Positions 1 through 49,046 of a stretch of 64,000 nucleotides of DNA are shown piece after piece. The stretch covers positions 8,127 through 72,126 of the forward strand of contig JBNJDU010000003.1 in the NCBI GenBank assembly GCA_051745165.1, given 5' to 3'. The stretch is from Patescibacteria group bacterium (lineage in GTDB: Bacteria; Patescibacteriota; Minisyncoccia; Minisyncoccales; PWPS01). The notes beneath the pieces were generated by a model. That model was not told the DNA's origin. It made no database searches and saw only the letters and a program-made list of their open reading frames with translations. The translations under genes were made by a program, and so were the position numbers. How positions within the stretch are numbered: the stretch's first letter is position 1; every line of letters begins with the position of its first letter.

Positions 1-2873
1 TCTGCAGAACTGATTACTATATCTTGATCAGAGCAATCTACAGACTCTGTTTCACCTGATGATAAATCTAAATTTGAAGAGGAACATTTTTGAAGTATTA
101 TGGCATAACTTTTAGCTCCCGGAATTTCTTTCCAGTCAATTTTAACAGGATGTTTTATCTTTTCAAAAAAGGATGGTGATATAATTTCTGTAGATTTTGG
201 GGGGCGACCAGCAGTTTTAAACTCAAAAGGAGCATCATCATAACGGTTGTCTTTAGATCTCCAATCGGAACATTGTTTGTTATTATTAATCCAAGAATCT
301 ATTTCTTCAACATACTTATCGTCATCTTTTTCAGCATCTCCATCATAATAGCTTTCATCCCAGCAAGCTTTTACGTCCCACTCGTAAGTAGTGTCAGGAG
401 TTAAGTCTCCAGTCCAGTATATATTATCATCTGAATTAGAATACAGATTATTAAAAGTCGAGTCTGGATCTATAGAATTACTTGAATTATTATTAGAATC
501 TAAATTATTTGATATATCATCATTCTCCCAATCATCCCAATCTGTTGCTTCAGTATCAAAATCATCATTATTAAATTTTCTCCATCTCCCTGTTGAATAG
601 TATATATTTCTACTATTTTTAATTTTTATATCTTCCCAGGAATCAGAACCTTTTTCTCTTATTCTATAAACATAACTTCTGGCTCCAAATCTTCCATCCC
701 AACGTACTCGGAAAGGAAAACCAACAGTAGCGTCATCTTCACTAACCCCTTCGTTTTCCATATTTGGTGGGTTTATATTTTTAGGAGGGAAGAGGCGTCT
801 AGTTTCTCTATTATCTAATTGAAATCTCCATCTTTGACTAAAGTCTGTGCAATCTGTTCCCGCTCTTTCTCTACAGCTGGCAATATTCCAAGTATATACA
901 TCTTCCTCTTCATTTTCAGGAAGAGTAAAGAAGTCCATTTCATCATCTAAATGATTTGGTTCTGGATATCTATGTTGAGTTTCATCAGGTTCAACAGGTC
1001 TTCTTCTATAGTTACATATTGGATTATCTTTTACAGTTTCTGTTAATTGATCATGACAGTCTTCTAGTACGGGTTCACCGTATTCATTAATTGTTTCGGT
1101 TAGTACTCTTATACCTTCTCCAAAGCTCATTAGATAAACTCTTGGTGGTTCAGGCCTTGCGTCAGGAGTTGGTTGGTACCACTGCTGAGCCCATTTTAAT
1201 TCCTCTCTAAAGGAAACTTGATTTTGTAAAATTAAGCTATAAGAATCTTCACTCCAAATTGAATCAGTGTCTGACAATTCATCCCTCCAGCTTTTAAGCC
1301 CTTTATTCTCTCGAGGACCATCAATAGTAGAAGCAACTGTATCATCTCCTATTGTTTGAGAAGTTTCTGCTGGATATCTATAGCCGTTTTCATAACCATA
1401 TTCTTCAGATTGAACTCTGCTTGCATCAAAATTAGGGTCGTATAATTTTGAATCATAAGGAGATACCCAGTTAGGATCTATAGGAGATATTAATTCCGGA
1501 GCGTCGCTTGTTTCAAAAGAAAATGTTGCTTCTGGACCTCTTGTACCTTCCTCCTCTTCTAAATAGTCGTGAGAAGGGCATGTGGCTTGTAAACTGTAAG
1601 TATGCTCCGTTCCTGAACGGAAAAAGGCTGGTCTTCCATAAGAGTTGTAAGTATTATTAATTATTTCTTGCAGAGCATTATCACCTTCGAATTTTTCTAA
1701 GAGATAATCTCTCATCCATTCTCTTTTTTCACGATCGTATTCATATTTTGGATCGAAGTCGAGCGGATTGAAGGTATTTGTGTCTAACCAAATTTCTTGT
1801 TCTGTGCCGCAATTATCACAACCAATAATATTATCTCTATCATATCTCATTACATCTAAAGATCTGGCATCATCGTGCTCTTCTCTGTAATCTATATATG
1901 CATTTCTGTTTTCAATTTCTAATTCTTCAAACTTATCTTGTGCTTCATTATATTCATACCCTTCTTCCCTTAATTTATTCACTACTTCGTAGCGGTGAAA
2001 TTTAGCGGGACGATCTTCTCTATTTATATTGTCAAATTTTATTATATAGGAATCAACGCAAGCTATGTTGTTAGGATCATCTTCACATTCTTTAAATTCT
2101 CCATTTTCTATCCAACCTTCATGCCAACCGGGAATGTTCCACCAGAACAATTTTACGGGTAAAGGTGTTCTTTTTAAAGGATTATCACCACCTAATAAAT
2201 TTTTATTTCTTAATTGTTCAATGTTTTGAGGTTTTTCTCCTCCAGCCATTCCTGGTAACCAAGGATTATTAAAGTAGTATGGATCTTCTTGCCCGAACTC
2301 TTCAGCTTCTCCTGGAACTCCCGGTGGTGCTTGCAAACAATCTGTTTGGCAAGTTGGGAAAGGGACGGGTTCTCCATATTCTTCTTCTAGCTCTTCTTCA
2401 GTTAACCACCTTGCACTTGCTGGCCAGGCTTTTTGCCAACTGCCCACTTCATCAAATACTTCACCATCTTGATTAGGGGTGTAGCGGTCATAGAAATAAA
2501 CAAAATCATCTGTCCACTGAGGATCTGAGCAGTCTTTATTTTCTGAAGTTCCTGGACAACGACCCATTTCTAAACCTACAACTTGCCAATTACGCATTAA
2601 AATATCACCACCACAACCAGTGTGCTCGGCTCTAAATTGTCGTTCTTCATGAACAACTTTTTCTCTATAAACAAAGCGAGGTTCTCTTTCTGGTCCAGGG
2701 CAAGGGCTTAGGGGTGGAGATGTAGGATCAGGAAGACTTTGTGTAAGTTTATCTGATCTTTCTGCACTTTCTGGTAGTTCGGTGGTTTGAGCAAAACTAA
2801 AACTAGTTGATAAGAAAAGCAAACTAATTATAATTGCCAGCAATAAGTTTATTTTTTTATTTGTTTTAGTCAT
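1..2873 (-). CDS. Large secreted Cys-containing protein, N-terminal ~957 codons (3' end lies beyond window start)
   Basis: Minus-strand frame read by eye is open from ATG at 2873-2871 to position 1. It is absent from the ORF track because no stop lies in the window. N-terminus MTKTNKKINLLLAIIISLLFLSTSFSFAQT looks like a signal peptide. Recurrent strand-like motifs (VKIDWKEIPGAKSYAIIL, VRWDGRFGARSYVYRI, VKLFWWNIPGWHEGW) suggest Fn3-like modules. Starts 1 nt after the stop of the upstream gene. Confidence 0.7.
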   Translation of the reverse strand, partial: MTKTNKKINLLLAIIISLLFLSTSFSFAQTTELPESAERSDKLTQSLPDPTSPPLSPCPGPEREPRFVYREKVVHEERQFRAEHTGCGGDILMRNWQVVGLEMGRCPGTSENKDCSDPQWTDDFVYFYDRYTPNQDGEVFDEVGSWQKAWPASARWLTEEELEEEYGEPVPFPTCQTDCLQAPPGVPGEAEEFGQEDPYYFNNPWLPGMAGGEKPQNIEQLRNKNLLGGDNPLKRTPLPVKLFWWNIPGWHEGWIENGEFKECEDDPNNIACVDSYIIKFDNINREDRPAKFHRYEVVNKLREEGYEYNEAQDKFEELEIENRNAYIDYREEHDDARSLDVMRYDRDNIIGCDNCGTEQEIWLDTNTFNPLDFDPKYEYDREKREWMRDYLLEKFEGDNALQEIINNTYNSYGRPAFFRSGTEHTYSLQATCPSHDYLEEEEGTRGPEATFSFETSDAPELISPIDPNWVSPYDSKLYDPNFDASRVQSEEYGYENGYRYPAETSQTIGDDTVASTIDGPRENKGLKSWRDELSDTDSIWSEDSYSLILQNQVSFREELKWAQQWYQPTPDARPEPPRVYLMSFGEGIRVLTETINEYGEPVLEDCHDQLTETVKDNPICNYRRRPVEPDETQHRYPEPNHLDDEMDFFTLPENEEEDVYTWNIASCRERAGTDCTDFSQRWRFQLDNRETRRLFPPKNINPPNMENEGVSEDDATVGFPFRVRWDGRFGARSYVYRIREKGSDSWEDIKIKNSRNIYYSTGRWRKFNNDDFDTEATDWDDWENDDISNNLDSNNNSSNSIDPDSTFNNLYSNSDDNIYWTGDLTPDTTYEWDVKACWDESYYDGDAEKDDDKYVEEIDSWINNNKQCSDWRSKDNRYDDAPFEFKTAGRPPKSTEIISPSFFEKIKHPVKIDWKEIPGAKSYAIILQKCSSSNLDLSSGETESVDCSDQDIVISSA

Positions 2874-2874
2874 T

Positions 2875-4623
2875 TTAATAGGTTCTATGAACTGTACTAC
2901 AAGATTTAGATATTGAATCTTCGCTGCTATATGGGCCGGTTGGTGGTGCATTATGATACTTTTCTTCTCCCTCCCATTCACACTCATAACCTCCTGTATG
3001 AGGACAACCAGAAGGACTTCCACAATCGCCAGGATCAAATTCACAAACAGGTTCACAAACATCCCCAGGCGTAGCCCACCATTCACAAGAGTCATAATAA
3101 TAGACATGTTTTAAGTTATCGGGAACTCCAATTCCTCTTTCCTTCATTTGTTCTGGTTTTGTTATAGCACTACCTCCTTCTAATCTAGCACATGTAACAT
3201 TTCCTATAGGGGGAGTATCAGTTCCTGATTGTGTTTGAGGGCCACATGTACTTGTATTAGCACAATATTCTTCCTCCTTTTCATTACCGTCTTCATCTGT
3301 AACTGTTCTTGTTTGTGTTTGACATTGTGGTGTTCCATCACAAGGAGGTGGTCCTCCAGGTCTATATTGAGACCATACATAAAATTCTTGAAGTAGGTTA
3401 ATAGAGATATAAACATCCCAACCAGCTTCTAAGGCAGCATTTACTTCTGGTTCTAAGTCAACATTTACCATTTCTCCTTCTAAATCATATGTTACTGTAC
3501 CTCCGGTGACAGAATTTCCACAAAAATCAATATAATCCCCCCCTCTATTACTTGCATCACTTAAAGTGGACATTGCACTGCTTTGATTAAAGCTAGCAGA
3601 ATTAAAATTGAACCCATTCCACTGTGAATCTTCAACTAATCCTGAAGCAGTGCTATCTATTGAAGTATTGTAAAGTCTTAACTCACTAGGTGTTAAGTCT
3701 CCAATATCTACTAATTCATAAGGAACAGTTCCATTCAAATCAGTATCATGCAACTCTAATCTTTCTACCTGACTTCCCATGTCACCAATTTCAGAAGGAA
3801 TAGAACCAGATAAATCATTATCATAACCTAAAAAGTATATTGGAGATAAATCACCAATTTCAGAAGGAATAGAACCGGATAAATTATTTTTATAAAGTCC
3901 AATATAATCCGTACTGCTTAAATCACCAATTTCGGCAGGAATACTACCGCTTAACTCGTTACCTCCTAAATTTAACTGGAGTTCAGGATTTAAATCTCCG
4001 ATTGTGTCGGGAATAGAACCGGTAAGGTCTATATAAGCGGCTTTGTAAGCTAAATCTGGGTTTGCGTTTACCCACTCATCACTTAAAGAGCCTCCTATCG
4101 GGTTATTACTAACACTAAAAAGTTGTAGAGAATTAGTTCTTGGCTCTGGGTCGCTATAATGAGCTTCTACTTTTCTTTTTTGATGATTAGTTACTGAAAC
4201 TTGACATCTATTTTCTTTTGTAGCATCACATCCGGACCAACCAATAAATTCTTCTCCAGAGGCTCTTAATATTATGTTTTCTATATCTTCATTTGATTCT
4301 ATTACGTAAGGGGGGTTTTCTTCTCTTATATTAATATCTTTAGGAGTAGTTATATCACTATTAACCTGAGATATTCTATAATTTAAATCTTCAGAAGTAC
4401 TGAATTCATATTCTTTATTTATTTGATGATCATTTAAAAAAGCATGAACTTCTAACCGATTTTGTTTATTTCCACTTATTTCATCAGTAGTGGTGGTCGG
4501 ATAATCAAGAACTCCTTTTAAGTTATTTAATTGGTTAAAACTACTAAAAGTAGTAATTAATAACAAAGCTAAGAGCACTGACAAAACTAAAAGATAATCT
4601 TTTTTTATTTTTTTTATTTTCAT
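2875..4623 (-). CDS. Secreted/anchored protein with plant-type leucine-rich repeats (L..N.LSGSIP.EIGDL) and a Cys-rich C-terminal region
   Basis: 582-aa ORF. N-terminal hydrophobic segment LLVLSVLLALLLITTF. About 5 consecutive 24-aa repeats of the form NELSGSIPAEIGDLS / NNLSGSIPSEIGDLS / NDLSGSIPSEIGDMG. The C-terminal ~170 aa contain many Cys. Confidence 0.85.
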   Translation of the reverse strand: MKIKKIKKDYLLVLSVLLALLLITTFSSFNQLNNLKGVLDYPTTTTDEISGNKQNRLEVHAFLNDHQINKEYEFSTSEDLNYRISQVNSDITTPKDINIREENPPYVIESNEDIENIILRASGEEFIGWSGCDATKENRCQVSVTNHQKRKVEAHYSDPEPRTNSLQLFSVSNNPIGGSLSDEWVNANPDLAYKAAYIDLTGSIPDTIGDLNPELQLNLGGNELSGSIPAEIGDLSSTDYIGLYKNNLSGSIPSEIGDLSPIYFLGYDNDLSGSIPSEIGDMGSQVERLELHDTDLNGTVPYELVDIGDLTPSELRLYNTSIDSTASGLVEDSQWNGFNFNSASFNQSSAMSTLSDASNRGGDYIDFCGNSVTGGTVTYDLEGEMVNVDLEPEVNAALEAGWDVYISINLLQEFYVWSQYRPGGPPPCDGTPQCQTQTRTVTDEDGNEKEEEYCANTSTCGPQTQSGTDTPPIGNVTCARLEGGSAITKPEQMKERGIGVPDNLKHVYYYDSCEWWATPGDVCEPVCEFDPGDCGSPSGCPHTGGYECEWEGEEKYHNAPPTGPYSSEDSISKSCSTVHRTY

Positions 4624-4634
4624 TTTAATTAATT

Positions 4635-7514
4635 TTAGGAATCTGGAAACTCTCCCTTAAAATCATTATTTCTTATATTAAATGAGTTCATTTTATTAAC
4701 TTCATTCAACATTTCGTCAGGTAAATCTCCTTTAAAATCATTATTGTTTAATGACAAAACATCTTCTGGCAAACCTTCCTCTACCCATTTTTCCCAATCT
4801 ACTTCTCCTTCTCCAGATTTATTTTCTCCAAGGCTGAAATATTCTAATCTTTTTAATTCTTCTGCTCCTTCAGGGAAAGGAATTTTATTATTGTCATCTG
4901 TCGTATGAAAATCAAAACGAACTAAATTGTTTAGATCTTCAATATTACTAGCAAAAGAATCTATTTGGTTTTCGAAGCCGTAAATATTTTCTAAATTAGA
5001 TAGACTGTTTAGTTCATCAGGAACTTCTTCTATCGCATTATTATTAAAGTTAAATGTTTCTAAACTTGTTAGATTTTCTATTTCACTAGGAAGTGGTCCG
5101 GAAATTCCTTCGGAGCCTCTTCCCTGGTTTAAAGCTACATCAAACCATCTTAAATTACCCATGTTTTCAATTGCTGAATCAATTTGTCCATCAAGTTCAT
5201 TTTCATACATACTAAAATATTCTACATTACTTAAGCCTTCTAAGAATTTTTGATTTAATCCTCCTCCTATTTCATTTTCGTCAGCAAAAAACCTGTTTAG
5301 AGAAGACCAATTATTACTATCTGGATTAGGTAGAGAACCATCAATTTCATTGTATTGAAAATATGCCCTTCTAAGGTTACCCGCTTCCATTATTTTTCCT
5401 GGAATAGCTTGGGAGATGTTATTATTGTTTAAGTATAGCCTTTTTAGGTTATTTAAATCTCCTAACTCAGCTGGTAAATTTTCTAGATTATTATTTTGTC
5501 CGTAAAGATAAGTTAAATTGCTCATATTTGACCAATTTTCTTCTGGAAGAGATTCTAAAGAATTATTATTGATTAATAATGTTTCTAAAGAAGATAATTC
5601 AGTAATTTCTTGAGGTATAGCTCCACTCATTTGTCCTTGAATTTCTGATCTAATTTTTTTTGCTTGTCCAGCCTGTCGGGAAAGATTTAAATACTTTAAA
5701 TTTGAAAGATTAGTTACTTCGACAGGAAATTCTTCTAATAAGTTAGTCCCAAGCTCTAAATTTATTAAGTTATTACTATTAGAGCCCATTAAAAGTTCTG
5801 TAGTTCCTCCTCCACTATCTAAATCACGAAAACTTTCTGGAAGTGACTCTAATAAATTTTTATTTAAACTTAATTCTTGTAAGTTGTTGCCAAAATTATC
5901 TCCAAATTCTTCAGGTAATTTTTCTATTTTATTTTCAGAGAAATAGGCAAATCGAACTCTTGAAAGTTTTAATTCTTCGGGGATTGATTCTATTTCGTTT
6001 CTGCTTGCAAATAACCATTGAAGATTATCAGCAGTAGCTGAAAAATCATCTTCCTCTTCTTCTCCCTCATTACCACTAGATAGTTCTAGTTCATTATTTT
6101 CAATATTTAATGTAGTTAATTTATCTAAGTCAAAAACTTCTGCCGGAATCTCTCCTTCAAGGTTGTTATTATGAAGTCGTAGAGTTTTTAAATTAGATAA
6201 TTCTCCAATTTCTGCCGGAATCTCTCCTTCAAGGTTGTTGTTGTATAAGGACAAAAGAGTAAATGGGATTTCATTATCAAACTGTGATAAATTTTTTATT
6301 GAAGGAGGAATAGCTTCTTCATATTCATCGCTATTCATGCTTGTCTTGGTAGTTTCTTCTCCTTCGGAATTTTCTTCAGTAAAGCTAAAACCTTGAATAT
6401 TATTATTATCTAAACGTAAAGAATCTATAGCAGCAAGATCACCAATTGATTCAGGAATTAGTGTTAAGCAATTATATCTAAGATCTAAGGAAAGCTTTCT
6501 TGGATGCCAAGTTTCTCTAGTGTGATGATCTTGCAAATCTTGTAAGGATGACAAATCTCCTAATTCTTGTGGTAAATTGTAATCTTCTCCGCAATTTAAA
6601 AGATTATTAGCAGCATTTAGATGCTCTAATTTGTTTAGCTTCATTTCTACCTCTTCATCTTCTTCTGTATTATTAAATTTATCAAAAAGAGAGTTTAGAG
6701 AATTAGCCCTTACATTTAAAGTGTAAAGATTTTCTAACTCAATTATTTCTTCTGGTAGGTTTTCTAATGAATTATTATTAAGCGTTAAAATCTTTAAATT
6801 ACTTAAATCTCTAACTATTTCCTCTTCACTATTTTCTTTTTCTTCTTCTGTTGGGGTAATGTTAGCAAAAGAGGTAAGGTTGTTATTATGCAGGTAGAGC
6901 TCTTGTAAGTTAGTGAGAGAGCCTATCTCTGCCGGAATCTCTCCTTCAAGGTTGTTATTATGAAGTGATAAGACTTCTACATTCTCCAACCCTTCCATTT
7001 CTGCCGGAATCTCTCCTTCAAGGTTGTTATTATCTAAAATTAACCATCTTAATTGAGTAAAATCTTGTATATATTCAGGAATCTCTCCTTCAAGGTTATT
7101 ATGACTTAAATTTAATCGGTAAAAATCTTCTAGTTTAGTTAAATTTTCTGGAATCTCTCCTGTTATTGATTGATTCGACCAGGTGATTCTATTTATTCTA
7201 TCCAAATCTGAGGGCTCCATATGAATTTCTTTCTCTCCTGCTCTTCCAAAAAAGTGATCTACACCTGTCCTATTTTTATATATTAAGTGTTCATCATCTT
7301 CATTATCTTCTTCTATCGGCTCCTCATCGACAAAATGCCAATTAGCAAAACCACCAGGTCGCCAACTGGCTGATAAGGACACCGCTTCTTCGGCTAAGGT
7401 ATTTATCTTAATGAGAAATTCTTCCTCTTCTTCAGCTTTAATTGACCCTGATATAGCAAAAACAGAAATTAATAAAATAATGAAGAAGTAGGCTTTTTTT
7501 TCGGAGAAATTCAT
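4635..7514 (-). CDS. Large secreted leucine-rich repeat protein (959 aa)
   Basis: Signal-like N-terminus FFIILLISVFAISGSIKA. Many LRR units, both plant-type (NNNLEGEIPAEIG.L.NL) and typical 22-23 aa (L.NL..L.L.NN.L..LPEE). Start ATG overlaps the rsmA stop (ATGA). Confidence 0.9.
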   Translation of the reverse strand: MNFSEKKAYFFIILLISVFAISGSIKAEEEEEFLIKINTLAEEAVSLSASWRPGGFANWHFVDEEPIEEDNEDDEHLIYKNRTGVDHFFGRAGEKEIHMEPSDLDRINRITWSNQSITGEIPENLTKLEDFYRLNLSHNNLEGEIPEYIQDFTQLRWLILDNNNLEGEIPAEMEGLENVEVLSLHNNNLEGEIPAEIGSLTNLQELYLHNNNLTSFANITPTEEEKENSEEEIVRDLSNLKILTLNNNSLENLPEEIIELENLYTLNVRANSLNSLFDKFNNTEEDEEVEMKLNKLEHLNAANNLLNCGEDYNLPQELGDLSSLQDLQDHHTRETWHPRKLSLDLRYNCLTLIPESIGDLAAIDSLRLDNNNIQGFSFTEENSEGEETTKTSMNSDEYEEAIPPSIKNLSQFDNEIPFTLLSLYNNNLEGEIPAEIGELSNLKTLRLHNNNLEGEIPAEVFDLDKLTTLNIENNELELSSGNEGEEEEDDFSATADNLQWLFASRNEIESIPEELKLSRVRFAYFSENKIEKLPEEFGDNFGNNLQELSLNKNLLESLPESFRDLDSGGGTTELLMGSNSNNLINLELGTNLLEEFPVEVTNLSNLKYLNLSRQAGQAKKIRSEIQGQMSGAIPQEITELSSLETLLINNNSLESLPEENWSNMSNLTYLYGQNNNLENLPAELGDLNNLKRLYLNNNNISQAIPGKIMEAGNLRRAYFQYNEIDGSLPNPDSNNWSSLNRFFADENEIGGGLNQKFLEGLSNVEYFSMYENELDGQIDSAIENMGNLRWFDVALNQGRGSEGISGPLPSEIENLTSLETFNFNNNAIEEVPDELNSLSNLENIYGFENQIDSFASNIEDLNNLVRFDFHTTDDNNKIPFPEGAEELKRLEYFSLGENKSGEGEVDWEKWVEEGLPEDVLSLNNNDFKGDLPDEMLNEVNKMNSFNIRNNDFKGEFPDS
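6138..7098 (-). repeat. Five near-identical ~22-31 nt DNA repeats (ctgccggaatctctccttcaaggttgtt) inside the LRR gene
   Basis: Copies read at 6138-6167, 6209-6239, 6927-6956, 6998-7028 and, shorter, 7076-7098. Each encodes NNLEGEIPAE. Confidence 0.8.
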
Positions 7515-8359
7515 GCTTGTTTAATTTTACTTTCTTTTTCGTTGAAAGTCAAATATTTTTTACTTATTTTTATCCAGTGATTTAAAGATAAATCTTCAGC
7601 TCTTTTTTTTGGATCAATATTAATACTGGTTAATATCTCTTTTACTTTTGGTTTTGAGAAATTTTCTAAATCAGCTAAGTTGTTTTTTAGTTGTTTTCTT
7701 GGGTGGCGGAAGCCTGATTCTACTACTTTGAAAAATAATTTAGAAAAATTTTCATTACGCGTGTATTTTAGATGAGGTGTTATTTTTAGAATTGCTCCAT
7801 TTACTTTAGGTGAGGGCCAAAAATAATTTTTAGAAATTTTCTTAATAAATTGTGGATCTCCTCTAAACTTAGTTATTATTGATAGAAAATTTTCTTTTTC
7901 TCCTTTGGACACTATTCTTTTTGCTACTTCCTCTTGAACTATAACTGATATTAATGTCGGGGGACTTTCTTTTAATAATTTTCTAATTATTGCTGTTGCT
8001 ATATTGAAGGGAAGATTAGCTACTACTTTATAATCTTTATTATTGTAAATTTTAGTTGGTAGTTTAAGAAAATCATCATTTATTATAGTTAGATTTTCTT
8101 TGTTTAAGGATTTAAGGTGCTTTATCATTCGAGAATCCTTTTCAACTACGGTTACCTGCTTTGCTTTTTTAGTTAACTCTTTAGTTAAAGCTCCTAATCC
8201 AGGGCCAATTTCTAATACATTGTCTGTTGATTGAATATCAACAGTTTTTATTAAGGTTGTTATTGTCTCTTTATCTATTAAAAAGTTTTGCCCTAATTTT
8301 TTTAAGGGTGCCTCCTCCTTTAATATAGATTTTATATTTTCTATTTTAGTTAAATCCAT
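7511..8359 (-). CDS. rsmA: 16S rRNA (adenine1518/1519-N6)-dimethyltransferase RsmA/KsgA
   Basis: LGQNFLIDKE, VLEIGPGLGALT and NLPFNIATAII motifs. I place the start at ATG 8359 (MDLTKIENIK). The TTG at 8428 in the ORF track would run through a strong opposite-strand promoter. Confidence 0.9.
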   Translation of the reverse strand: MDLTKIENIKSILKEEAPLKKLGQNFLIDKETITTLIKTVDIQSTDNVLEIGPGLGALTKELTKKAKQVTVVEKDSRMIKHLKSLNKENLTIINDDFLKLPTKIYNNKDYKVVANLPFNIATAIIRKLLKESPPTLISVIVQEEVAKRIVSKGEKENFLSIITKFRGDPQFIKKISKNYFWPSPKVNGAILKITPHLKYTRNENFSKLFFKVVESGFRHPRKQLKNNLADLENFSKPKVKEILTSINIDPKKRAEDLSLNHWIKISKKYLTFNEKESKIKQA

Positions 8360-8365
8360 TAGCTT

Positions 8366-8393
8366 ATTATATAAAAATAAGAAAAAATAACAA
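8366..8393 (-). promoter_or_regulatory. sigma70-like promoter for rsmA operon (TTGTTA-16-TATAAT)
   Basis: Hexamers read on the minus strand, with -10 at 8371-8366 and -35 at 8393-8388. Confidence 0.5.
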
Positions 8394-8761: not shown

Positions 8762-9541
8762 ATGGTTGATACTCAAGTTTTAGGATCAGATAGTGGTAGC
8801 ACTTCCAAAAGAGATTCAATAATCTCCTATCAAGTTAAAGATAATGATAGTTTAGATTCTATTGCCGAAAAGTTTGATATTAGCAAAGACACAATTAGAT
8901 GGGCTAACAGTATAAGCGGGAACGATGTTAGTGCTGGGGATGAGCTTTTAATTCTTCCTACTACGGGAATTTTATACTATGTTGAAAGAGGAGATACTCT
9001 AAGCGACATTGCTCAGAAGCATGATGCAAATGGTGATGAAATTATAGAATTTAATGATGTTGAAAGTGAGACTGATATTAAACCTGGTGATCAGCTCATT
9101 ATTCCCGATGGGGAGAAGCCAGCCGCTCCAACTATTCAGCAAAGCGCTCCAAGCCCAGCTCGTACCAATGATAGTTTTTCTTCAGTAACCTATGGTACGG
9201 TGACTCAAGGAATGCATAGTGGACATAAAGCTATTGATGTAGCTAATAATTGTGGAACTCCGATTTATTCTGGTGGTTCCGGAACAGTTACTAAAACAGG
9301 ATTTGATCCACAGATGGCTGGTAATTATATTTGGATTGATCATGGTAGTTTTAAGGCTTTATATGCTCACTTACAAGGAATTCATGTTACAGCCGGTGAA
9401 GTTGTTAGTGGTGGTGAGCAAATAGGAACAATGGGGAATACCGGATTCACTAAAGGACCAACTGGTTGTCATATTCATTTTGAAGTTAGAGGAGGAGCAA
9501 ATCCTTTCTCTAATATGCAGCGTGGACAAACAATGCAATAA
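8762..9541 (+). CDS. LysM-LysM-M23 (LytM-type) peptidoglycan endopeptidase; true N-terminus probably upstream (see findings)
   Basis: Two LysM repeats (YQVKDNDSLDSIAEKFDIS..., YYVERGDTLSDIAQKHDAN...). M23 motifs HKAIDV, ALYAHL, GNTGFTKGPTGCHIHFEV. Confidence 0.9.
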   Translation: MVDTQVLGSDSGSTSKRDSIISYQVKDNDSLDSIAEKFDISKDTIRWANSISGNDVSAGDELLILPTTGILYYVERGDTLSDIAQKHDANGDEIIEFNDVESETDIKPGDQLIIPDGEKPAAPTIQQSAPSPARTNDSFSSVTYGTVTQGMHSGHKAIDVANNCGTPIYSGGSGTVTKTGFDPQMAGNYIWIDHGSFKALYAHLQGIHVTAGEVVSGGEQIGTMGNTGFTKGPTGCHIHFEVRGGANPFSNMQRGQTMQ

Positions 9542-9601: not shown

Positions 9602-9949
9602 ATGATAAAATTAAGCAATATGCCAGAAAAAGAACCAACAATTGAGCACGAACCAAATCCGGAAAAGAAAAGAGAAATTCCGGAAGCCGAACAAAATTTT
9701 TCTGAAAAACAAGAGGAAACTTTTGACATTCCAGAAGAAGGTAAGAAAGAAATTAGAAGAAAAAAAGAAGAAGAAAAAGAAAAACAAGAAGCTTATAAAG
9801 AGGAAATAGAGGAATTGGTAGCATTAGCAAAGGAAAAAGGATTTTCTAAAGCTTATAAAAAAGCTAAAAAGTTAAGTAATAAAAACAACGATTCAATAAT
9901 AATTGATCGGTTTCATGACCGTTTATCTCAAGAAGATTTAAATGACTAA
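9602..9949 (+). CDS. Small Lys/Glu-rich hypothetical protein (115 aa)
   Basis: ORF overlaps the start of the downstream ATPase gene by 8 nt. Low-complexity K/E-rich composition with no recognisable domain. Confidence 0.5.
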   Translation: MIKLSNMPEKEPTIEHEPNPEKKREIPEAEQNFSEKQEETFDIPEEGKKEIRRKKEEEKEKQEAYKEEIEELVALAKEKGFSKAYKKAKKLSNKNNDSIIIDRFHDRLSQEDLND

Positions 9950-12347
9950 TTTACCTTTTCAAATTCATATATATTTACCAATAATTCTGGTAATAATCGG
10001 GTTAGTATGGTTTTTGATATTGAGGAGAATAAGAAGAAAGGATTTAGAAAAAGGGCTTAATATGTCCTTGTTTTTAATTAGGCTTCCTAAATACGAACAA
10101 AATGAGAGAAAGTTGTCAATTGAGGAAATTAGATCTTTAATAGGTAAGATGGAGCAATTTTATTCTAATTTTTTATACTTAGAAAAGAAAAGTTTTTTTG
10201 GAACCCCGCCTGAAATAGCTTTTGAAGTTTCTTCTCAAATAGGAGGCTCTGATATATCATTTTTTGTTTCTGTTCCTGATAGATTAAAAACTTCACTGGA
10301 TAAATATGTCCAAGGTATTTTTCCTGGAGCTGTCCTGCAGGAAGTTCCTGAGGATTATACTATTTTTGAACCTGGAGGAGTTGAAAAAGCTTCTTATTTA
10401 CAGCTAAAAAAGCATTACGGATTACCAATTAAAACTTATAAAGAATTAGAAAATGATCCTCTAGAAAGTATAACTAATTCACTTACGAAAATTACTAAGG
10501 ATGAAGGTTCTTCTATTCAATTAATTTTAAAACCAACTAGCTTTAGTTTTAAGAGAAAAATAAATAAAATACAATACTTAATAAAAAAGAAAGGTTTGAG
10601 TTTTTCGCAAGCTACTAGAAAGGCGGAAAGAAGCTTTTTCTTAGATATTATAAAAGAATTTTTTGATATTCTGCTTAATTCATCAAACGATAAAGAAGTA
10701 AAAGAAGATCAAGATTTATTAGAAGCAATTAAGAAAAAAGGAAAGCACCCTGCTTTTGAAGCTAATGTAAGACTTGTGGCGGCTGCAAAACAAAAAGAAA
10801 AAGCAGAAGATGTTTTAAATAATTTAGAAAGTGGATTTTCACAATTCTTTTCTAATTTTAATGGTTTTAGATTTAAAAGAGTAAAAGGAAGACATTTTCA
10901 TAAACTTATAGATAATTATAGTTTTAGAAGATTTAATAAGAAAGAAAAGATGGTATTGAATTTAGAAGAGCTATCTAGTATTTATCACTTCCCTCTTTCT
11001 CATATGAAGACACCATATATTAACTGGGTTAAAACTAAAGAGTCTGCTCCTCCTTCTAATTTACCAGAAAATGGGCCAGTTCTTATTGGGAATGTTGTAT
11101 TTAGAGGAGAAGGTAAAGACGTTTATATTGGATCTCGAGAAGATAGAAGAAGACATGTCTATACTATAGGTCAAACTGGAGTAGGTAAAACTTCTTTAAT
11201 GCAGGAAATGATTAGACAAGATATGGAAAATGGAGAAGGTGTCGGGGTTATAGATCCTCATGGAGACTTAATTGAAGACACTTTAGCTAACGTTCCGAAA
11301 AATAGAATAGATGATGTTGTTTTGTTTGAACCGTTTGACACTAGAAGACCTTGTGGATTGAATATGCTCGAATGGGACATTCCTGAGCAAAAGGATTTTG
11401 CAGTTTCAGAAATGATCTCAATATTCACTCAACTGTTTCCACCGGAAATGATAGGTCCCATGTTTGAGCATTATATGAGAAATGCAATGCTCGCTTTAAT
11501 GGCAGACAAAGAAAATCCAGGAACTTTAGTAGAAATACCAAAAATATTTACGGATGATGACTTTATGAGAGAAAAGGTAAGCAAAGTCTCTGATCCAATG
11601 GTGAGAAACTTTTGGGAAAAAGAATGGCAACAGACTGTTGGTGAGGATAAATCAAAGATGCTTGGGTATGTAGTTTCTAAAGTGGGTCGCTTTGTAGAGA
11701 ACGAGATGATGAGAAATATTATTGGTCAGCAACATTCCAGTTTTGATTTAAGCAAAGTAATGGATGAAGGAAAAATATTTTTAGTTAATTTAACTAAAGG
11801 TCTTACTGGAGAAATGAATAGTTCTTTGTTAGGACTTATTTTAGTTTCTAAGTTGCAAATGGCGGCAATGAAAAGAGTTAATACACCTCAAGAACAAAGA
11901 AAAGATTTTTATCTTTATATTGATGAGTTTCAAAACTTTACGACTGACAGCATAGCTACGATTCTTTCTGAAGCCCGTAAATACAAGCTTAATTTGATTT
12001 TAGCAAACCAATTCATGCCACAACTCAAAGATGAGATTAGAGACGCTGTAATCGGCAATGTGGGTACTATAGCGGCTTACAGAGTAGGTGAAGACGATGC
12101 AGAATTTTTAGAAAACAAATTCTCGCCTGAATTTTCTAGCTTTGATCTTTCTAATATTAGTAATTACCATTATATTACTAAAATGATAGTAGATGGTAAT
12201 GTAACCTCTCCTTTTAAAGTAAAGGCCCCTTATCCACAAGAAGGGGATAAGGGGCAGGTAAAATCTATTAAGAAACTATCTAAACAAAAATACGGAAGAC
12301 CTAAGAAAAAGGTAGAAAATAGAATGAAAGAAAGAGGTATTGTTTAG
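9942..12347 (+). CDS. Membrane-anchored P-loop ATPase of the TraD/TrwB/VirD4 (FtsK-HerA superfamily) coupling-protein type
   Basis: N-terminal TM helix (IYLPIILVIIGLVWFLIL). Walker A GQTGVGKTS followed by VIDPHGDL. Walker B-like FYLYIDEFQNF. C-terminal arrangement typical of T4SS DNA-binding coupling proteins. Confidence 0.75.
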   Translation: MTNLPFQIHIYLPIILVIIGLVWFLILRRIRRKDLEKGLNMSLFLIRLPKYEQNERKLSIEEIRSLIGKMEQFYSNFLYLEKKSFFGTPPEIAFEVSSQIGGSDISFFVSVPDRLKTSLDKYVQGIFPGAVLQEVPEDYTIFEPGGVEKASYLQLKKHYGLPIKTYKELENDPLESITNSLTKITKDEGSSIQLILKPTSFSFKRKINKIQYLIKKKGLSFSQATRKAERSFFLDIIKEFFDILLNSSNDKEVKEDQDLLEAIKKKGKHPAFEANVRLVAAAKQKEKAEDVLNNLESGFSQFFSNFNGFRFKRVKGRHFHKLIDNYSFRRFNKKEKMVLNLEELSSIYHFPLSHMKTPYINWVKTKESAPPSNLPENGPVLIGNVVFRGEGKDVYIGSREDRRRHVYTIGQTGVGKTSLMQEMIRQDMENGEGVGVIDPHGDLIEDTLANVPKNRIDDVVLFEPFDTRRPCGLNMLEWDIPEQKDFAVSEMISIFTQLFPPEMIGPMFEHYMRNAMLALMADKENPGTLVEIPKIFTDDDFMREKVSKVSDPMVRNFWEKEWQQTVGEDKSKMLGYVVSKVGRFVENEMMRNIIGQQHSSFDLSKVMDEGKIFLVNLTKGLTGEMNSSLLGLILVSKLQMAAMKRVNTPQEQRKDFYLYIDEFQNFTTDSIATILSEARKYKLNLILANQFMPQLKDEIRDAVIGNVGTIAAYRVGEDDAEFLENKFSPEFSSFDLSNISNYHYITKMIVDGNVTSPFKVKAPYPQEGDKGQVKSIKKLSKQKYGRPKKKVENRMKERGIV

Positions 12348-12688
12348 TTACAATCCTTACATGTTTTAGTAGCAGGAACAACTTCTAATCTATCTTCACC
12401 AATATTCTTTCCACATTCTTCGCACTTTCCATAAGTGCCTTTTTTTATTTTTTCTAAAGCTTCATTAGTTCTTTTTAGCTTTAACTCTAAAGAATGCTCT
12501 ATAGATCTAAGAGAATCAAATTCTTCCACTTCATCAGCTGCTTCTTCAATGTGGCGATTGTCAAATTCAGGAAATTTAGTATCCCAATCACCCTTTGGTT
12601 TTTCATCTTCCTTTGCAAATCTTTCGAGCATTGTTCGTAATTCCTTTTTTTGCTTCTTTAATTTACTTTTAAATTTATCTGTATTCAT
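12344..12688 (-). CDS. DksA/TraR-family C4 zinc-finger protein
   Basis: C-terminal CEECGKNIGEDRLEVVPATKTCKDC preceded by a coiled-coil region. Confidence 0.8.
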   Translation of the reverse strand: MNTDKFKSKLKKQKKELRTMLERFAKEDEKPKGDWDTKFPEFDNRHIEEAADEVEEFDSLRSIEHSLELKLKRTNEALEKIKKGTYGKCEECGKNIGEDRLEVVPATKTCKDCN

Positions 12689-12700
12689 AGATAGTTTTGA

Positions 12701-15700
12701 TTAATTAGCACTTTCTTCTTCCTCTTGCTCTTCTTGAGGAGCTTCCTCTTCTGAGTTTTCAGTTGTTTCGTCTTGATTAGATTCTTCCTTTTCGTTTTGT
12801 TGATCTTCTTCTGTTTGATTATTTTCTAAGTCTTCACTAGATTCAGACTCTTCAATATTTGGTTCAGACTCTTCAATGTCAGGATTGTTGTCAATCCTGT
12901 CAATAATCTCTTCCATAGCCTCCATAGAGGCGGTTAGAGCGAAGCGGTTATCAATGATAGTGTAGTAGATACCAAAGTCTATCTCCTCGCTCATTTCTTC
13001 GTAAGTGGTGTTATCCACAGCTTCTCCTTCTTCAGGGTTAGTTTCAATCTCCTTTTCTCCTTTTTCGGAAAAATTACTTGATACCCATCCTGTAGTTTCC
13101 TCATCGATTCTAATTTCAAACCAACCATTTTCTTCATTTAAAAACTCATGTTCTGTTCCTGCATCAACAGTATCAATTTGCTCTTCATTAACTGAAGAGC
13201 CTGCTCTAACATTTAAACCTTCTTCCCCAACAGAATTGCTAATAACCACAACTTCTTCTGTTTCTGTATCTCCTTCTATGAATTTACCTTCTAGCTCATT
13301 AAACTCGTCATTAGTAATGGCTTCGGTTACTTCATTGTTTTCAGTGTCAACAGTTAAAGCTAAATTATGAGAGGTAGGTCCTTCTTCTGATTCTAAATCA
13401 CTATAACCGGAGTCTTCTGTTTCAAATTCAAAGCGCATTATTGCTCCATCTGGTTCTTCATTAGTTTCTACATGAGTTAAATTACTACCTTCTTTATTTG
13501 TGTAGGTAGGAATATTAGATTCGATCCAACTTTGAATATTTTCTTCTAAAGTTGCTTCGTTTGGATGATGGGTGAAGTGAGAAACTTCATAATCCTTATA
13601 CTCGGTAGTTTTTTGTTCAGAATCAATATCTTCTGTATTATAATTGTGTAGTTGTAGGAAATTAGAGAAGTCTTGAACCATGCTTTCTTCCCATGGAGAA
13701 ATTCCCATATCACGGAAGTCCGCTAATCCCCCTTCTTCAATTTCTCCAATAAATCCTAGAGTGTTTTGCTCTCCTGAATGAACGAAAAGAGTAAATTCAT
13801 CCTTTAGTAAATCTAAGAAATGACCAGTTGGAGGAGAAATTCTTAGGGCGTTGAAAAACTCATTAAGATGCATTACCCTCCTTGGGTTTTCTGATTGATT
13901 TAAAATAATAAGCTCATTAAATGTTGATCCTTCAGCATTTTCCAGTCTACTATTTAAGAATATAGGGACTTCGTCTAAATTAGCAGTAGAAAACTCTCTA
14001 ACTTCATCGTTTTCATTTGTAGGAAAGAGAGTTCTGACTGTTAAAACTTCTTCTATTTCGAAGGTAGTTTTACTTTCGTCTATTGTATTGCCGGCATTAT
14101 CAACTCCTTCTACTTGAGCTTCTATTTCTGAACCTGTTAATTCAGGAGGGAAGCTGTAAGAAACTGTTTCACCATTAAGATTTTCCAATTCTTCTACTTC
14201 TCCCTCTTCTATTTCTGTAGTTAATGACCAGTTAAAGTCAGAGAATTCTCCATCGAATTGAACCTCCATTTCATATTCATAACCTTCAGTTTGTTCAACT
14301 TCTACTCCAAAGATTTCTGGATCAGGTTGTGTATCTTCAGATTCTGGTCCAAAAAATGATGTAATTCCCATTACAACACCAAAAAGGAGTAAAGCAGCAA
14401 CCCCAACAACACCAATTCTAGCAATCATTTTTGATTTGTTAGTTGGTTTTTTGGGTTTATCTTCTGTGATATCAGGAGAACCTTTTTCATCTGAGTCTGA
14501 AGGTGGAGTTGGAGGAGATGATGGAGCTGCTTTTTTATTATTTCCTGGCCCTGATGAAGCACCAATAGGGCGTTCAAAAGCACTATCCTCTTCTTCCTTA
14601 GTATCTTCTTTTTGAGTATCTTGGTTTAAATCTTTATTTAATTCATTTGCTAAATTTTTAGGAGGTGTTGGCTTAGAGTCGCCTTTATCTTTATTTGGCG
14701 TGTCTTCCTTAGTTTCTAGACCTCCTAAGCTTTTAGGTTCTTTTTTTTGAGAGGCTTTGTCTTTCTGAGGTGATTCTTCTTGTGTTTTTCCTTCCACCTT
14801 TTCTTCTAGTCTTTTTAAGAACTCCTCCCTTTCCTTTTCTTCTTCCTCTTCTACTTTATTTTCTTCTCCACCAACCCCATCATTATTATTACTATCTTCT
14901 TTTGATTGTGGTTTTTCTTCTTTTTTATCACTATCTTCTTTTTTCTTCTTTTGGTCATCATCTCCCTCATTCTTATCCGTTTTATTTACACTTGACCTAT
15001 TTGATTGAGGTCCTTTTCTTCTTTGCTGCTTTTCTTTTTTTATTTTTTCTTCCCTCTCCTTTTCTTCTCTTTGAAAATCTTCTTTTGACTTTCCTTCTTC
15101 AATTGCAAAGTTTACATCCTCTAATTCTCCTTTTATTTCATCTTCTCTTCGAGCAATGAGTTGCAATTCTTCTCTTTTGTTTTTAATTTCTTCTAATTCT
15201 TTTTCAAGTTCCCATCTTTCTTTTTCTATTTTTCTCCTTTCTTCTTCAGCATCCCATCTTTTTTCTTCCACCTCCCTTTTCTTATTTGGTTCTTCAGCTA
15301 GTTTTTCTTCCCTCTCAATTTCTTTTCCTTTTTCTTCTATTTCATTTTCGCGTTTTTCTATTTCATTTAAGCGCGTATTTATTTCATCTTCTCTTTTATC
15401 TAGTTCCGATGTTTTTTCTTCAATTGTTTTTCTTAATTCCGAAAATCTACTTAGCTCTTCTTTAAGTTCTTGTTTTTCTCTTTTTGCTTCAATTTGACTT
15501 TTACTCTTATCAAGAGATTCGATTTTATCTTTGAGGTTCTTTTCTTTATTTAAAACTTGTTGATATCTAAGCTCTATTTTGCTTTCTTGCTCTTTTAATT
15601 TTTCAATTTCTTCTTCTACTTCCCATCGTTCCTCTTCAGCTTCTTTTCTTCTTTCCTCCACTCTCCATCGGCGACTTTCTATTGCTCTCTTCTCTTCGGG

Positions 15701-20933: not shown

Positions 20934-21006
20934 TGCCCTCGCTAGGGATCGAACCTAGAACCTTGTCCTTAAGAGGGACCTGCTCTCCCAGTTGAGCTAC
21001 GAGGGC
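20934..21006 (-). tRNA. tRNA-Lys (anticodon CTT), no encoded CCA
   Basis: Cloverleaf read by eye: acceptor GCCCTCG/CGAGGGC, D arm GCTC..GAGC, anticodon loop CTCTTAA, T arm CTAGG-TTCGATC-CCTAG. Confidence 0.88.
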
Positions 21007-21014
21007 GTTTTCAA

Positions 21015-21671
21015 TTAATCTTCACTAGGCAATTCCATATCTGAAGGTCTTTCTATCTCTACTTCACACATTGGTTGAGTTTTAATTCCTTCGCTTCCCC
21101 ACTCAATTTCCCAATCCATAAATCCAGAAATTATAAGTGTTATTATAGCCCAGGAAAAGTAAGCTAAAAATAATCCTAAAGCTGCATATTTTAAAGCATC
21201 TATAGCTTTATTAGTTTTCTCTGGATTTCCAGTAGAAACAATCATTGTCACTCCGGCACCTACTATTACTATAAGGGCTATAGCAGGAATTAAGCCTCCT
21301 AAAACAAAACTTATTACCCTGTCAAATATCATAAAAAGATGACAAAGACTACAAGGGACAAATGTTTCGGGAGAAGAACCACCTTTTCCAAGTGCTTCTG
21401 ATGAGCAGCGATGTATTTCATCTAACTCTTTACTAAAGAAGTTTTGAATATCTCCGCTACTTGATTCTACAGAAAGACACCTTCCGCAAGGAACCATTCC
21501 ATCATATTCTACTTCTAAAGATCCACTTATTGGATCTCCTTGTTGGTCTTCACCTATTACATTTATGTTGTAAGTTTCAGACTCTTGATATTCTTCTGCC
21601 TCGTCTGCCTCCGATATTTGCGGAACAAATATAATGAAAGCAGCTAAAATTAGGATAATAAACTTCTTCAT
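21015..21671 (-). CDS. Secreted/membrane protein resembling TrbC/VirB2-type (T4SS-pilin-like) proteins, with an extra N-terminal Cys-containing domain
   Basis: Signal peptide MKKFIILILAAFIIFVPQISEA. CxxC pairs. Two C-terminal TM helices separated by STGNPEKTNKAIDALKYA, a layout I associate with T4SS pilin-like families. Confidence 0.55.
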   Translation of the reverse strand: MKKFIILILAAFIIFVPQISEADEAEEYQESETYNINVIGEDQQGDPISGSLEVEYDGMVPCGRCLSVESSSGDIQNFFSKELDEIHRCSSEALGKGGSSPETFVPCSLCHLFMIFDRVISFVLGGLIPAIALIVIVGAGVTMIVSTGNPEKTNKAIDALKYAALGLFLAYFSWAIITLIISGFMDWEIEWGSEGIKTQPMCEVEIERPSDMELPSED

Positions 21672-21714: not shown

Positions 21715-21788
21715 TACCTCCGGAAGGATTCGAACCCTCAACCTTCCGGTCCGAAGCCGGACGCTCTATCCAGTTGAGCTACGGAGGT
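21715..21788 (-). tRNA. tRNA-Arg (anticodon TCG), no encoded CCA
   Basis: Acceptor ACCTCCG/CGGAGGT, anticodon stem-loop TCCGG-CTTCGGA-CCGGA, T arm GAGGG-TTCGAAT-CCTTC. Confidence 0.88.
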
Positions 21789-28234: not shown

Positions 28235-28308
28235 TGGAGCGGGTGATGGGATTTGAACCCACATGACTGGCTTGGAAGGCCAGGGCTCTGCCATTGAGCT
28301 ACACCCGC
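28235..28308 (-). tRNA. tRNA-Gly (anticodon TCC) with genomically encoded CCA
   Basis: Acceptor GCGGGTG/CACCCGC, anticodon stem-loop CTGGC-CTTCCAA-GCCAG, T arm GTGGG-TTCAAAT-CCCAT, 3' TCCA. Confidence 0.9.
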
Positions 28309-28380: not shown

Positions 28381-28453
28381 TCGGGGCACTCGGATTCGAA
28401 CCGAGAATCGCTCGCTCCCAAAGCGAGTATGTTAGCCGTTACACCATGCCCCG
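28381..28453 (-). tRNA. tRNA-Pro (anticodon TGG), no encoded CCA
   Basis: Acceptor CGGGGCA/TGCCCCG, anticodon stem-loop CTCGC-TTTGGGA-GCGAG, T arm CTCGG-TTCGAAT-CCGAG. Confidence 0.88.
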
Positions 28454-48641: not shown

Positions 48642-48692
48642 ATACTTTTAATCGAAAGGTTTGCTTTCGAATTTACTTAAACTTTTAAAGTG

Positions 48693-49046
48693 TGGAGATG
48701 GGGAGGTGTGACCCCCCGTCCGAAAATCCCTCCAAAATGAATCTACAAGCTTAGCCCGGTTTTTTCTCGACCGAAGCCTTGTACCGGACGAAGCTACTCC
48801 GGTCAAAGGTCTTTTAGCGTTCGCAAGGTCTGAGACCAACAAACCTTGTATAACCCGAATTTATGGTACTTTTACCACCCATCGGGTGTCAGTGGTAAAA
48901 GCAAGCTGTTACGCTACTGCTGGTGCAGGAGCGAAAGCTAAACTATCTTGTAAGTTGGCACTTACTAGATTTGGCAAGATTTACGAGATTTGCCAACTCG
49001 GCTTGCTACATTTTGAAGGTGATTCTCGTCTAGTCAACTCACCCCC
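48693..49046 (-). ncRNA. ssrA: tmRNA (SsrA)
   Basis: 5' GGGGGTGAGTTGACTAGACGAG pairs with 3' ...CCCCATCTCCA to give a tRNA-like acceptor with a G3-U pair. T-arm-like GGACGGGGGGTCACACCTCCCC. Internal tag frame GCC AAC TTA CAA GAT AGT TTA GCT TTC GCT CCT GCA CCA GCA GTA GCG TAA. Lies next to smpB. Confidence 0.85.

Follow-up and report, generated by a model that had tools for sequence, protein, structure and literature searches.

We analysed a 64,000-nucleotide (nt) stretch of DNA from a soda-lake Patescibacteria group bacterium (assembly GCA_051745165.1, contig JBNJDU010000003.1, positions 8,127 to 72,126 of the forward strand), called the window below. At its start lies a block of four co-directional genes on the reverse strand. 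The first is rsmA (also named ksgA; 7511..8359), which codes for a 16S rRNA dimethyladenosine transferase of 282 amino acids (aa). Its protein matches Pfam RrnaAD at 1.1e-54 over residues 20-268 and is a full-length match to TIGR00755 ksgA (232.4 bits, curated cutoff 171). Three large genes follow, and we call their products P1, P2, and P3. P1 (4635..7514) is a predicted exported leucine-rich repeat (LRR) protein of 959 aa with about 29 repeat units; P2 (2875..4623) is a 582-aa protein with LRRs and a Cys-rich part; and P3 (1..2873) is open at the window start, so that the first 957 of its 1292 aa lie inside the window. All three are acidic, with isoelectric points (pI) of 4.2-4.4 (4.2 for P1). 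The TGA of rsmA is shared with the ATG of P1 as ATGA (-4 nt), P2 begins 11 nt after P1, and P3 begins 1 nt after P2. A preliminary description of the window, made from the letters alone, had given rsmA and the three large genes with these coordinates, this overlap, and these gaps, and each was exactly as claimed. It was also right that the third protein exceeds 957 aa, leaves the window at its edge, and is missing from the listing of open reading frames, which is the case because P3 runs past that edge.

A database search recovered the third gene in full. Complete P3 is a 1292-aa protein (P0001, locus tag ACQEP3_01020) that is 100% identical across the 957 aa, and it is encoded on a 73,820-bp contig of an NCBI metagenome-assembled genome (MAG) named 'Patescibacteria group bacterium'. 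The database copy of P2 (P0015, locus tag ACQEP3_01025) is likewise on a 73,820-bp contig. A consensus scan found no terminator-like sites between rsmA, P1, P2, and P3. The same kind of scan placed a promoter-like site, TTGTTA-16-TATAAT with 10/12 matches, at 8366..8393 on the reverse strand. It ends 7 nt before the rsmA ATG, a distance that could mean a leaderless mRNA or one with a very short leader. A second promoter-like site lies at 7524-7552 on the reverse strand, inside the 3' end of rsmA and just upstream of P1. The counts of promoter-like and terminator-like sites show no excess over the shuffled expectation in this AT-rich DNA; the sites are candidates only, and the scan therefore speaks neither for nor against an operon.

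To compare the surroundings of the block among relatives, we used gene tables and ran tblastn for 14 fetched loci, to which two loci (L015 and L016) from distant Paceibacteria-type genomes were added. The nearest relatives of the organism are labelled Candidatus Nealsonbacteria. P3 has just 14 full-length orthologs and P2 has 18; those found in a scan of GTDB genomes belong to soda-lake-sediment MAGs labelled Candidatus Nealsonbacteria and to a small number of other MAGs under placeholder 'Saccharibacteria' names. The order rsmA>P1>P2>P3 is kept in at least seven independent related genomes. Directly after P3, loci L001, L008, L009, and L012 carry a PsbP-like gene, two PF18895 pilin genes, and a gene for a polytopic membrane protein of 626-663 aa, which from its hydropathy we would guess to be VirB6-like. 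Further along in the relatives come a 128-aa protein, a reversed Band_7-like gene, PrgI (VirB3-like and above the Pfam cutoff), a TraC/TrsD-like gene, and VirB4, which matches P-loop_TraG, AAA_10, and CagE_TrbE_VirB. These four loci hold a complete monoderm (MPF-FATA-like) type IV secretion system (T4SS) cluster contiguous with the P3 ortholog, and loci L003-L007, L011, L013, and L014 have the same order after P3 as far as their contigs extend.

On the other side of rsmA, the relatives and the window share a second set of genes. In the window, this set starts with a divergent gene for a LysM-LysM-M23 peptidoglycan peptidase (8762..9541, forward strand; Pfam Peptidase_M23 2e-23, LysM 2e-20). 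Its position is kept in all relatives, and it is a candidate for the VirB1-type wall-opening enzyme of the cluster. It is followed on the same strand by a small conserved protein of 115 aa (9602..9949), which has a tblastn match to a 107-aa gene in the same position in L001, and by a VirD4/TrwB-like T4SS coupling ATPase of 801 aa (9942..12347; Pfam TrwB_AAD_bind 6e-10, also DUF87 and TraG-D_C). The next two genes are on the reverse strand: a syntenic DksA/TraR-type zinc-finger protein of 114 aa (12344..12688; Pfam zf-dskA_traR 2.6e-10) and a very large acidic protein of 1614 aa (12701..17545; 29.9% D+E, pI 4.6) with a C-terminal SH3_3 domain. The slot adjacent to the DksA/TraR gene is filled by a large protein of 979-1592 aa in all related loci, the distant L015 and L016 included. 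A stand-alone VirB2-like T4SS_pilin of 218 aa (21015..21671, reverse strand) matches PF18895 with 35.8 bits, above the cutoff of 26.6; in L016, a pilin gene is found in a comparable position, upstream of the S15-NYN-PNPase genes.

The T4SS genes inside the window are thus those for VirD4, LysM-M23, DksA/TraR, and one pilin. The ortholog, in the genome of the window, of the first pilin downstream of P3 (P0140, annotated as 'pilin') is on a 73,820-bp contig, as is P0001; the cluster therefore very probably continues past window coordinate 1, with the VirB4 side lying there. For this genome, the genes expected downstream of P3 are placed from the order in the relatives and from P0140, the one downstream gene that was traced. 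The block is not the free-standing rsmA operon of the preliminary description but lies at the proximal end of a conserved T4SS locus, which comprises about 20 genes and reaches past the window start.

With the window as reference, identity to the relatives is 77-80% for VirD4, 51-73% for P3, 46-62% for rsmA, 39-54% for P1, and 36-52% for P2; with L001 as reference, it is 78-82% for VirB4 and 33-44% for the pilins. This gradient of divergence, rising from the motor to the outer parts, is of a kind typical of exposed proteins.

P3 appears to be built as a head on a stalk. Behind a predicted signal peptide come a ~520-aa head that contains conserved Cys, three to four Fn3-like modules, and, beyond the window start, a C-terminal VirB2-like hairpin. 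The Fn3-like modules carry the signatures W..(V/I).GA..Y and Y.W.V.(A/S)C with a conserved Cys, and the hydrophobic helices at the C-terminus span residues 1202-1236 and 1256-1282. The LRR, Cys-rich, and Fn3-like modules that had been noticed in the three proteins are indeed present. In hhalign, the profile of the P3 family aligned, over its last ~80 residues, to the stand-alone pilin of the window (21015-21671) with 95.5% probability and an E-value of 1.5e-8. PF18895 was matched by 9/14 members of the P3 family (E<=0.01, best 6.7e-5), all under the gathering score. The C-terminus of P3 is likely homologous to VirB2-like pilins.

The two halves of P3 differ in their distribution. In a profile search of 1.84 billion representatives, the head was restricted to a small ortholog family, whereas the stalk and pilin half had matches in 167 clusters at E<=1e-30 and in 2576 at E<=1e-3. 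Among the matches listed, the stalk-pilin region reaches the C-terminus or stops just a few residues short of it, with few exceptions. Most of these proteins are 350-1350 aa long; the 5597-aa P0281 is among the exceptions. Pfam found no family for the P3 head, and a PDB sequence search with P0001 came back empty. Six of the 14 P3 orthologs have an M15 peptidase domain as an insertion of about 150-200 aa after the head (Peptidase_M15_3, best 7.9e-14), and sampled stalk-pilin members carry other heads, namely Peptidase_C39_2 or a Pel9A-like (pectate-lyase-like) beta-helix.

In L015 the order is PNPase, a big protein, DksA/TraR, and a LysM-M23 gene facing away from rsmA; after rsmA come a P3-type gene, a gene for about 250 aa, a pilin, a 924-aa protein, a reversed Band_7 gene, and, further on, PrgI, a TraC-like gene, and VirB4. 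L016 has the gene order of L015 without rsmA, and no LRR gene is present at either locus. The P3-type gene thus occupies the same slot in both distant genomes, with other heads and without LRR genes, and from this gene order a head-stalk protein with a predicted pilin anchor is a conserved first gene of this T4SS operon. By the same comparison, the genes for P1 and P2 were inserted, specifically in this clade, between rsmA and the P3-type gene.

Two further observations concern these loci. The size and number of pilin-domain proteins differ from locus to locus; in L003 (15467-21021), two more large proteins of 820 and 1023 aa lie downstream of P3, with weak T4SS_pilin matches and, in one of them, Flg_new. 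The MAG T1Sed10_186 (PWGJ01, 'Candidatus Nealsonbacteria') has four P3-type loci, on contigs L009, L011, L013, and L014. Their P3-type proteins are 40-69% identical to the P3 of the window, and each is followed by PsbP-like and pilin genes. Either this genome has several T4SS loci or the bin is a mixture of related populations.

The neighbourhood could be read in another way, with P1-P3 as general envelope proteins, such as a surface-layer component, a binder of nutrients or particles, or a coat adapted to salt, that adjoin the T4SS genes because all of them share a conserved, highly expressed, origin-proximal stretch (rsmA, PNPase, S15), with no functional tie to secretion. The phylum-wide survey of Quinonero-Coronel et al. 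2025 found ksgA enriched near virB4 and credited this to an origin-proximal location (PMC12102498). Such an explanation agrees with the rsmA, PNPase, NYN, and tRNA genes scattered through the conserved locus and with the distant T4SS loci that lack P1 and P2, and environmental bacteria very commonly have LRR surface proteins. Against it stand the VirB2-like domain that P3 has in common with the pilins of the cluster, and the P3-type slot just upstream of the PsbP-like and pilin genes, which is kept across distant lineages. P1 and P2 are moreover wedged into the operon with gaps of 11 nt and 1 nt, and the order is held in at least seven genomes despite identities of 36-54%. We consider a general envelope role without a tie to the T4SS unlikely.

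P1 matches Pfam LRR_14 at 4e-44 and LRR_8 at 7e-41. A unit-by-unit census of its ~29 LRR units found nine clean 24-residue LxxLxLxxNxLxGxIP units of the plant-specific (PS) type and 2-3 degenerate PS-like units, nine 'typical' xxLP units of 22-25 residues, and about nine further irregular units with acidic inserts. The PS-type units fall into four blocks (residues 107-202, 418-465, 714-787, and 917-959), with 'typical' xxLP units between them. P1 thus mixes LRR classes, and about one third of its units are PS-type. In P2, the same census found about six units at residues ~165-340, of which ~6/6 are PS-type. The plant-type 24-residue repeats that had been ascribed to the proteins thus account for all units of P2, and for only about a third of those of P1, the rest being typical or irregular. 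At the DNA level, the PS blocks of P1 have a 72-nt period, and blocks about 0.7 kb apart are at most 83% identical. The 72-nt periodic repeats at window positions 6067-6248 and 6856-7109 correspond to the 24-residue PS-type units, and the repeats in the P1 gene suggest recent intragenic duplication or gene conversion.

The N-terminus of P2 is a signal or an anchor; a small beta domain comes next, then the LRRs, a conserved domain behind them, and finally a tail in which about 10 Cys are invariant. The tail has no similarity to the Cys-rich parts of the downstream pilins. The beta-rich part (residues ~105-158, window ~4150-4310) has the invariant motif WSGCDA...CQ(V/I)S(V/I)...Q.(R/K)K(V/I)E.H; we take it to be like the InlB B-repeat ('Listeria-Bacteroides repeat'), although it has no Pfam match and an AlphaFold2 (AF2) confidence of 53-62. 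In the AF2 model of P2, the per-residue confidence (pLDDT) is mostly >90 for the LRRs, the cap, and the first post-LRR strands (residues ~200-410).

When P1 and P2 were searched against PDB sequences, the ectodomains of plant LRR receptor-like kinases led the matches, with GSO1 first (1e-95 and 3e-82, respectively) and FLS2 and MIK2 next. A Foldseek search with the P2 model also placed plant receptors on top (the ectodomains of MIK2, RGFR1, and ERL). FLS2, GSO1, MIK2, BRI1, and PGIP have the 24-residue unit LxxLxLxxNxL(s/t/e)GxIPxxIGxL in common with P1 and P2. In contrast to these ectodomains, P1 and P2 have no LRRNT_2 cap, island domain, transmembrane segment, or kinase, and P1 adds typical units and acidic inserts. 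In Pfam, P1 and P2 matched only LRR_1, LRR_4, LRR_8, and LRR_14, with neither LRRNT_2 (PF08263) nor a kinase domain, and P1 contains two Cys in total.

The plant receptors at the top of the solved structures, and the plant and streptophyte-alga proteins among the LRR-only hits, would fit the acquisition of plant-type LRRs from a plant or alga, or proteins aimed at a eukaryotic host. With P2 as query, a search of 5.8 billion proteins gave 5582 LRR hits. Among them, plant kinases alternate with metagenome proteins of bacterial origin that have the same scores; the bacterial proteins score as high or higher, and are far more numerous in the list. Several bacterial hits have tails of the type IX secretion system or are named Chloroflexi, Holophagales, Gemmatimonadetes, or Balneolaceae. 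Since bacterial hits score as plant kinases do, the PS-type LRR is not unusual in bacteria and indicates no plant origin; judging from these hits, PS-type LRRs are common in environmental bacteria, and the earlier view that they are uncommon there falls. According to Matsushima, Miyashita and colleagues, PS-type LRRs are reportedly common in bacteria; our literature search on the subject turned up nothing useful. The likeness to plant proteins is limited to the repeat consensus, the G+C content (0.30-0.38) is inside the window range of 0.28-0.38, and the full-length orthologs all come from soda-lake-sediment Patescibacteria. On the bacterial LRR hits and the absence of plant caps, we reject a plant origin or plant target, which we regard as highly improbable.

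Inspection of hydropathy and charge found a basic n-region followed by a single hydrophobic segment in each of the three proteins, at residues 7-28 in P1, 8-32 in P2, and 6-30 in P3. AxA-like cleavage sites follow in P1 (IKA|EE) and P3 (SFA|QT), and the N-terminus of P2 may be a signal anchor instead of a cleaved signal. P1 ends in ...FKGEFPDS and P2 in ...STVHRTY, neither with an LPXTG motif or a hydrophobic tail, and P1 has no membrane anchor. P1-P3 would be located at the cell surface. The preliminary description had called all three proteins secreted. Predicted export signals are present in all of them; P3, however, is probably not simply secreted, its C-terminal VirB2-like pilin hairpin being a predicted anchor.

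The best NCBIfam matches of P1, limited to its LRR region, are XopAE, XopAC, and XopL, with 132, 109, and 105 bits against cutoffs of 600, 450, and 500, respectively. For the LRR regions, the best matches in NCBIfam and, among bacterial entries, in the PDB are XopAE, XopAC, and XopL and the Leptospira LIC LRR proteins. P1 and/or P2 might be effectors, either released or first exported by Sec and then passed on to the T4SS (the route that pertussis toxin takes to Ptl), that act on or in the host cell like Xanthomonas XopL/XopAE/XopAC or the Legionella LRR effectors. The Xop matches point this way, as do the missing membrane anchor of P1 and the location of both genes inside a secretion-system locus. 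The Xop scores are nevertheless far under their cutoffs and concern the LRR region only, and neither Pfam nor NCBIfam found a catalytic domain such as an E3 ligase or Fic in P1 or P2. Unlike the Xop effectors, the two proteins have predicted Sec signals in place of signals of the type III secretion system. Classical substrates of a T4SS reside in the cytoplasm and carry no Sec signal, in contrast to the predicted signals of P1 and P2. The hosts of known cultivated Patescibacteria are bacteria, and we know of no precedent for an LRR effector target in a bacterial host, which we count against an effector role. We therefore hold it to be quite improbable.

We consider it reasonably probable that rsmA-P1-P2-P3 is the promoter-proximal end of a chromosomal monoderm, MPF-FATA-like T4SS locus and that P1-P3 are its Sec-exported surface accessory layer. 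In such an arrangement, P1 and P2 would bind a surface ligand on a host or partner cell. P3 would be a head-stalk-anchor protein, with a lineage-specific head on Fn3-like modules and the hairpin in the membrane or possibly in a pilus, and would show its head at the contact site. The heads of P3-type proteins at this operon position include M15 in sister lineages and a C39-like peptidase or pectate-lyase-like beta-helix in distant relatives. The LysM-M23 peptidase, plus the M15 head where present, would open the peptidoglycan, and the VirB4/VirD4-driven channel and the pilins would then engage the partner. Host-cell binding by P1-P3, any dependence of the T4SS on them, and their co-expression with the T4SS are predictions from sequence and gene order. 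The preliminary description had proposed an attachment module. Partner-cell attachment is still the most plausible role, and it is better grounded now because the block is physically part of the T4SS cluster; what does not stand is the idea of an isolated rsmA operon.

Several points weigh against this surface-layer reading. The P3 of the window taken alone scored 17.8 bits against PF18895, below the gathering score of 26.6. The AF2 model of P3, built from the 14-sequence alignment, was unusable (mean pLDDT 42, pTM 0.27). The P3 of the window (P0001) has no M15 domain and no recognisable enzymatic domain. P1, for want of an anchor, may be released rather than displayed. P1 and P2 are, to judge from the LRR-free loci L015 and L016, dispensable for the core T4SS machine. 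Co-transcription of rsmA, P1, P2, and P3 would follow from gene spacing alone; rsmA is a housekeeping gene, and adjacency by itself could be positional rather than functional.

The remainder of the window was scanned for further T4SS genes, and its larger open reading frames were housekeeping genes only. These include the genes for PNPase, NusA, ClpP, RNase Y, ArgRS, IleRS, a ProRS-like protein, a Mur ligase, Fpg, PolX, and an ELP3-like radical SAM protein. A tmRNA lies at 48690-49046 (reverse strand), and four tRNAs lie at 20934-21006, 21715-21788, 28238-28308, and 28381-28453 (reverse strand). The tRNA and tmRNA genes together with the housekeeping genes support a chromosomal context rather than a plasmid or a phage. 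A 569-aa protein with a DUF11 repeat, of surface-protein type, is encoded at 56981-58690 (forward strand) and is a possible envelope protein unrelated to the T4SS finding. The minimum of the cumulative GC skew and a switch of gene orientation coincide at ~21.7-21.9 kb, between the pilin gene plus a tRNA and the gene for the CCA-adding enzyme; the GC skew mostly tracks the coding strand. A replication origin near 21.8 kb was considered and is not demonstrated: the genes there are those for the CCA-adding enzyme and NusA, and the window contains neither dnaA nor dnaN.

In Patescibacteria, the T4SS is MPF-FATA-like and mostly without relaxases, and the phylum survey found no PrgB-like adhesins (PMC12102498). 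In Southlakia, the T4SS and a pilin array are essential for epibiotic growth, and multiple adhesins are also needed (PMC10633639; PMC12857230). The locus SEML1_0006-0019 of Southlakia epibionticum (Wang et al. 2023, PMC10633639) and the loci in PMC12102498 have the same core of VirB4, a TrsD/TraC-like protein, PrgI, PF18895 pilins, VirD4, and a LysM/M23 hydrolase. The published loci are also chromosomal with ksgA nearby, as here. The kind of T4SS is itself already known, and the adjacency of rsmA to it is in the literature (PMC12102498). However, the published loci have small pilin arrays with no adhesins detected, whereas here two LRR proteins and a 1292-aa pilin-fused protein head the operon. 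LRR proteins have no text occurrences in PMC10633639 and PMC12102498, and in the literature searched we found no earlier description of either the inserted LRR genes or the family of pilin-fused head-stalk proteins with its fixed operon slot.

Large Sec-exported surface proteins are encoded in other T4SS operons, among them PrgA/PrgB/PrgC of pCF10 and the thioester adhesin of Bacillus conjugative elements (PMC8092201). These adhesins provide cell-cell contact for a pilus-poor monoderm T4SS, and their likeness to P1-P3 is one of function and position only. There is no sequence relationship: P1-P3 have LRR solenoids and Fn3-like modules where the others have polymer-adhesin or thioester domains. 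P1 and P2 have no Pfam or NCBIfam hits beyond LRRs, and P3, unlike PrgB-type adhesins, would be anchored by a pilin hairpin and has no LPXTG. The hairpin has two hydrophobic helices and is likely homologous to PF18895 pilins of the VirB2/TrbC kind. Canonical VirB2 is about 100-120 aa long and consists of the hairpin only, whereas that of P3 forms the end of a predicted extracellular protein of 1200 aa. The M15, M23, and C39-like domains, whether in P3 homologs or in the product of the neighbouring gene, are reminiscent of the VirB1 analogs with several domains that monoderms have (PrgK, TraG), although the P3 of the window has no hydrolase domain. By analogy, we propose that P1-P3 and the hydrolase set would work like PrgA/B/C and PrgK of pCF10, to which they are not homologous.

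A more far-reaching proposal, which we put forward tentatively and regard as somewhat doubtful, is that P3-type proteins are an undescribed class of VirB2-pilin-fused proteins, set in the first T4SS slot, placed at the base or tip of the pilus or channel, and fitted with swappable heads (M15, C39-like, pectate-lyase-like, or the Cys-containing head of the window) that they would turn towards the host envelope. In the soda-lake clade, the two fast-evolving LRR proteins would have been recruited into this operon as host-recognition adaptors, and both would jointly be the missing adhesins and determinants of host range.

The plant-type LRRs are, taken on their own, an ordinary feature. The Patescibacteria T4SS is essential for epibiotic growth in one tractable species, and the phylum survey found no adhesin. 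The locus described here yields candidates. One group is a widespread family of head-stalk proteins with a predicted pilin anchor, which keeps a fixed slot and carries interchangeable heads, some of them envelope-degrading; the other, in one clade, is a pair of fast-diverging LRR binders added to the same operon as further candidates for host contact. If P1-P3 do act in host contact, they would offer handles to predict or engineer the host range of uncultured ultra-small bacteria, and they would help explain how a conjugation machine of Gram-positive type was repurposed for parasitism.

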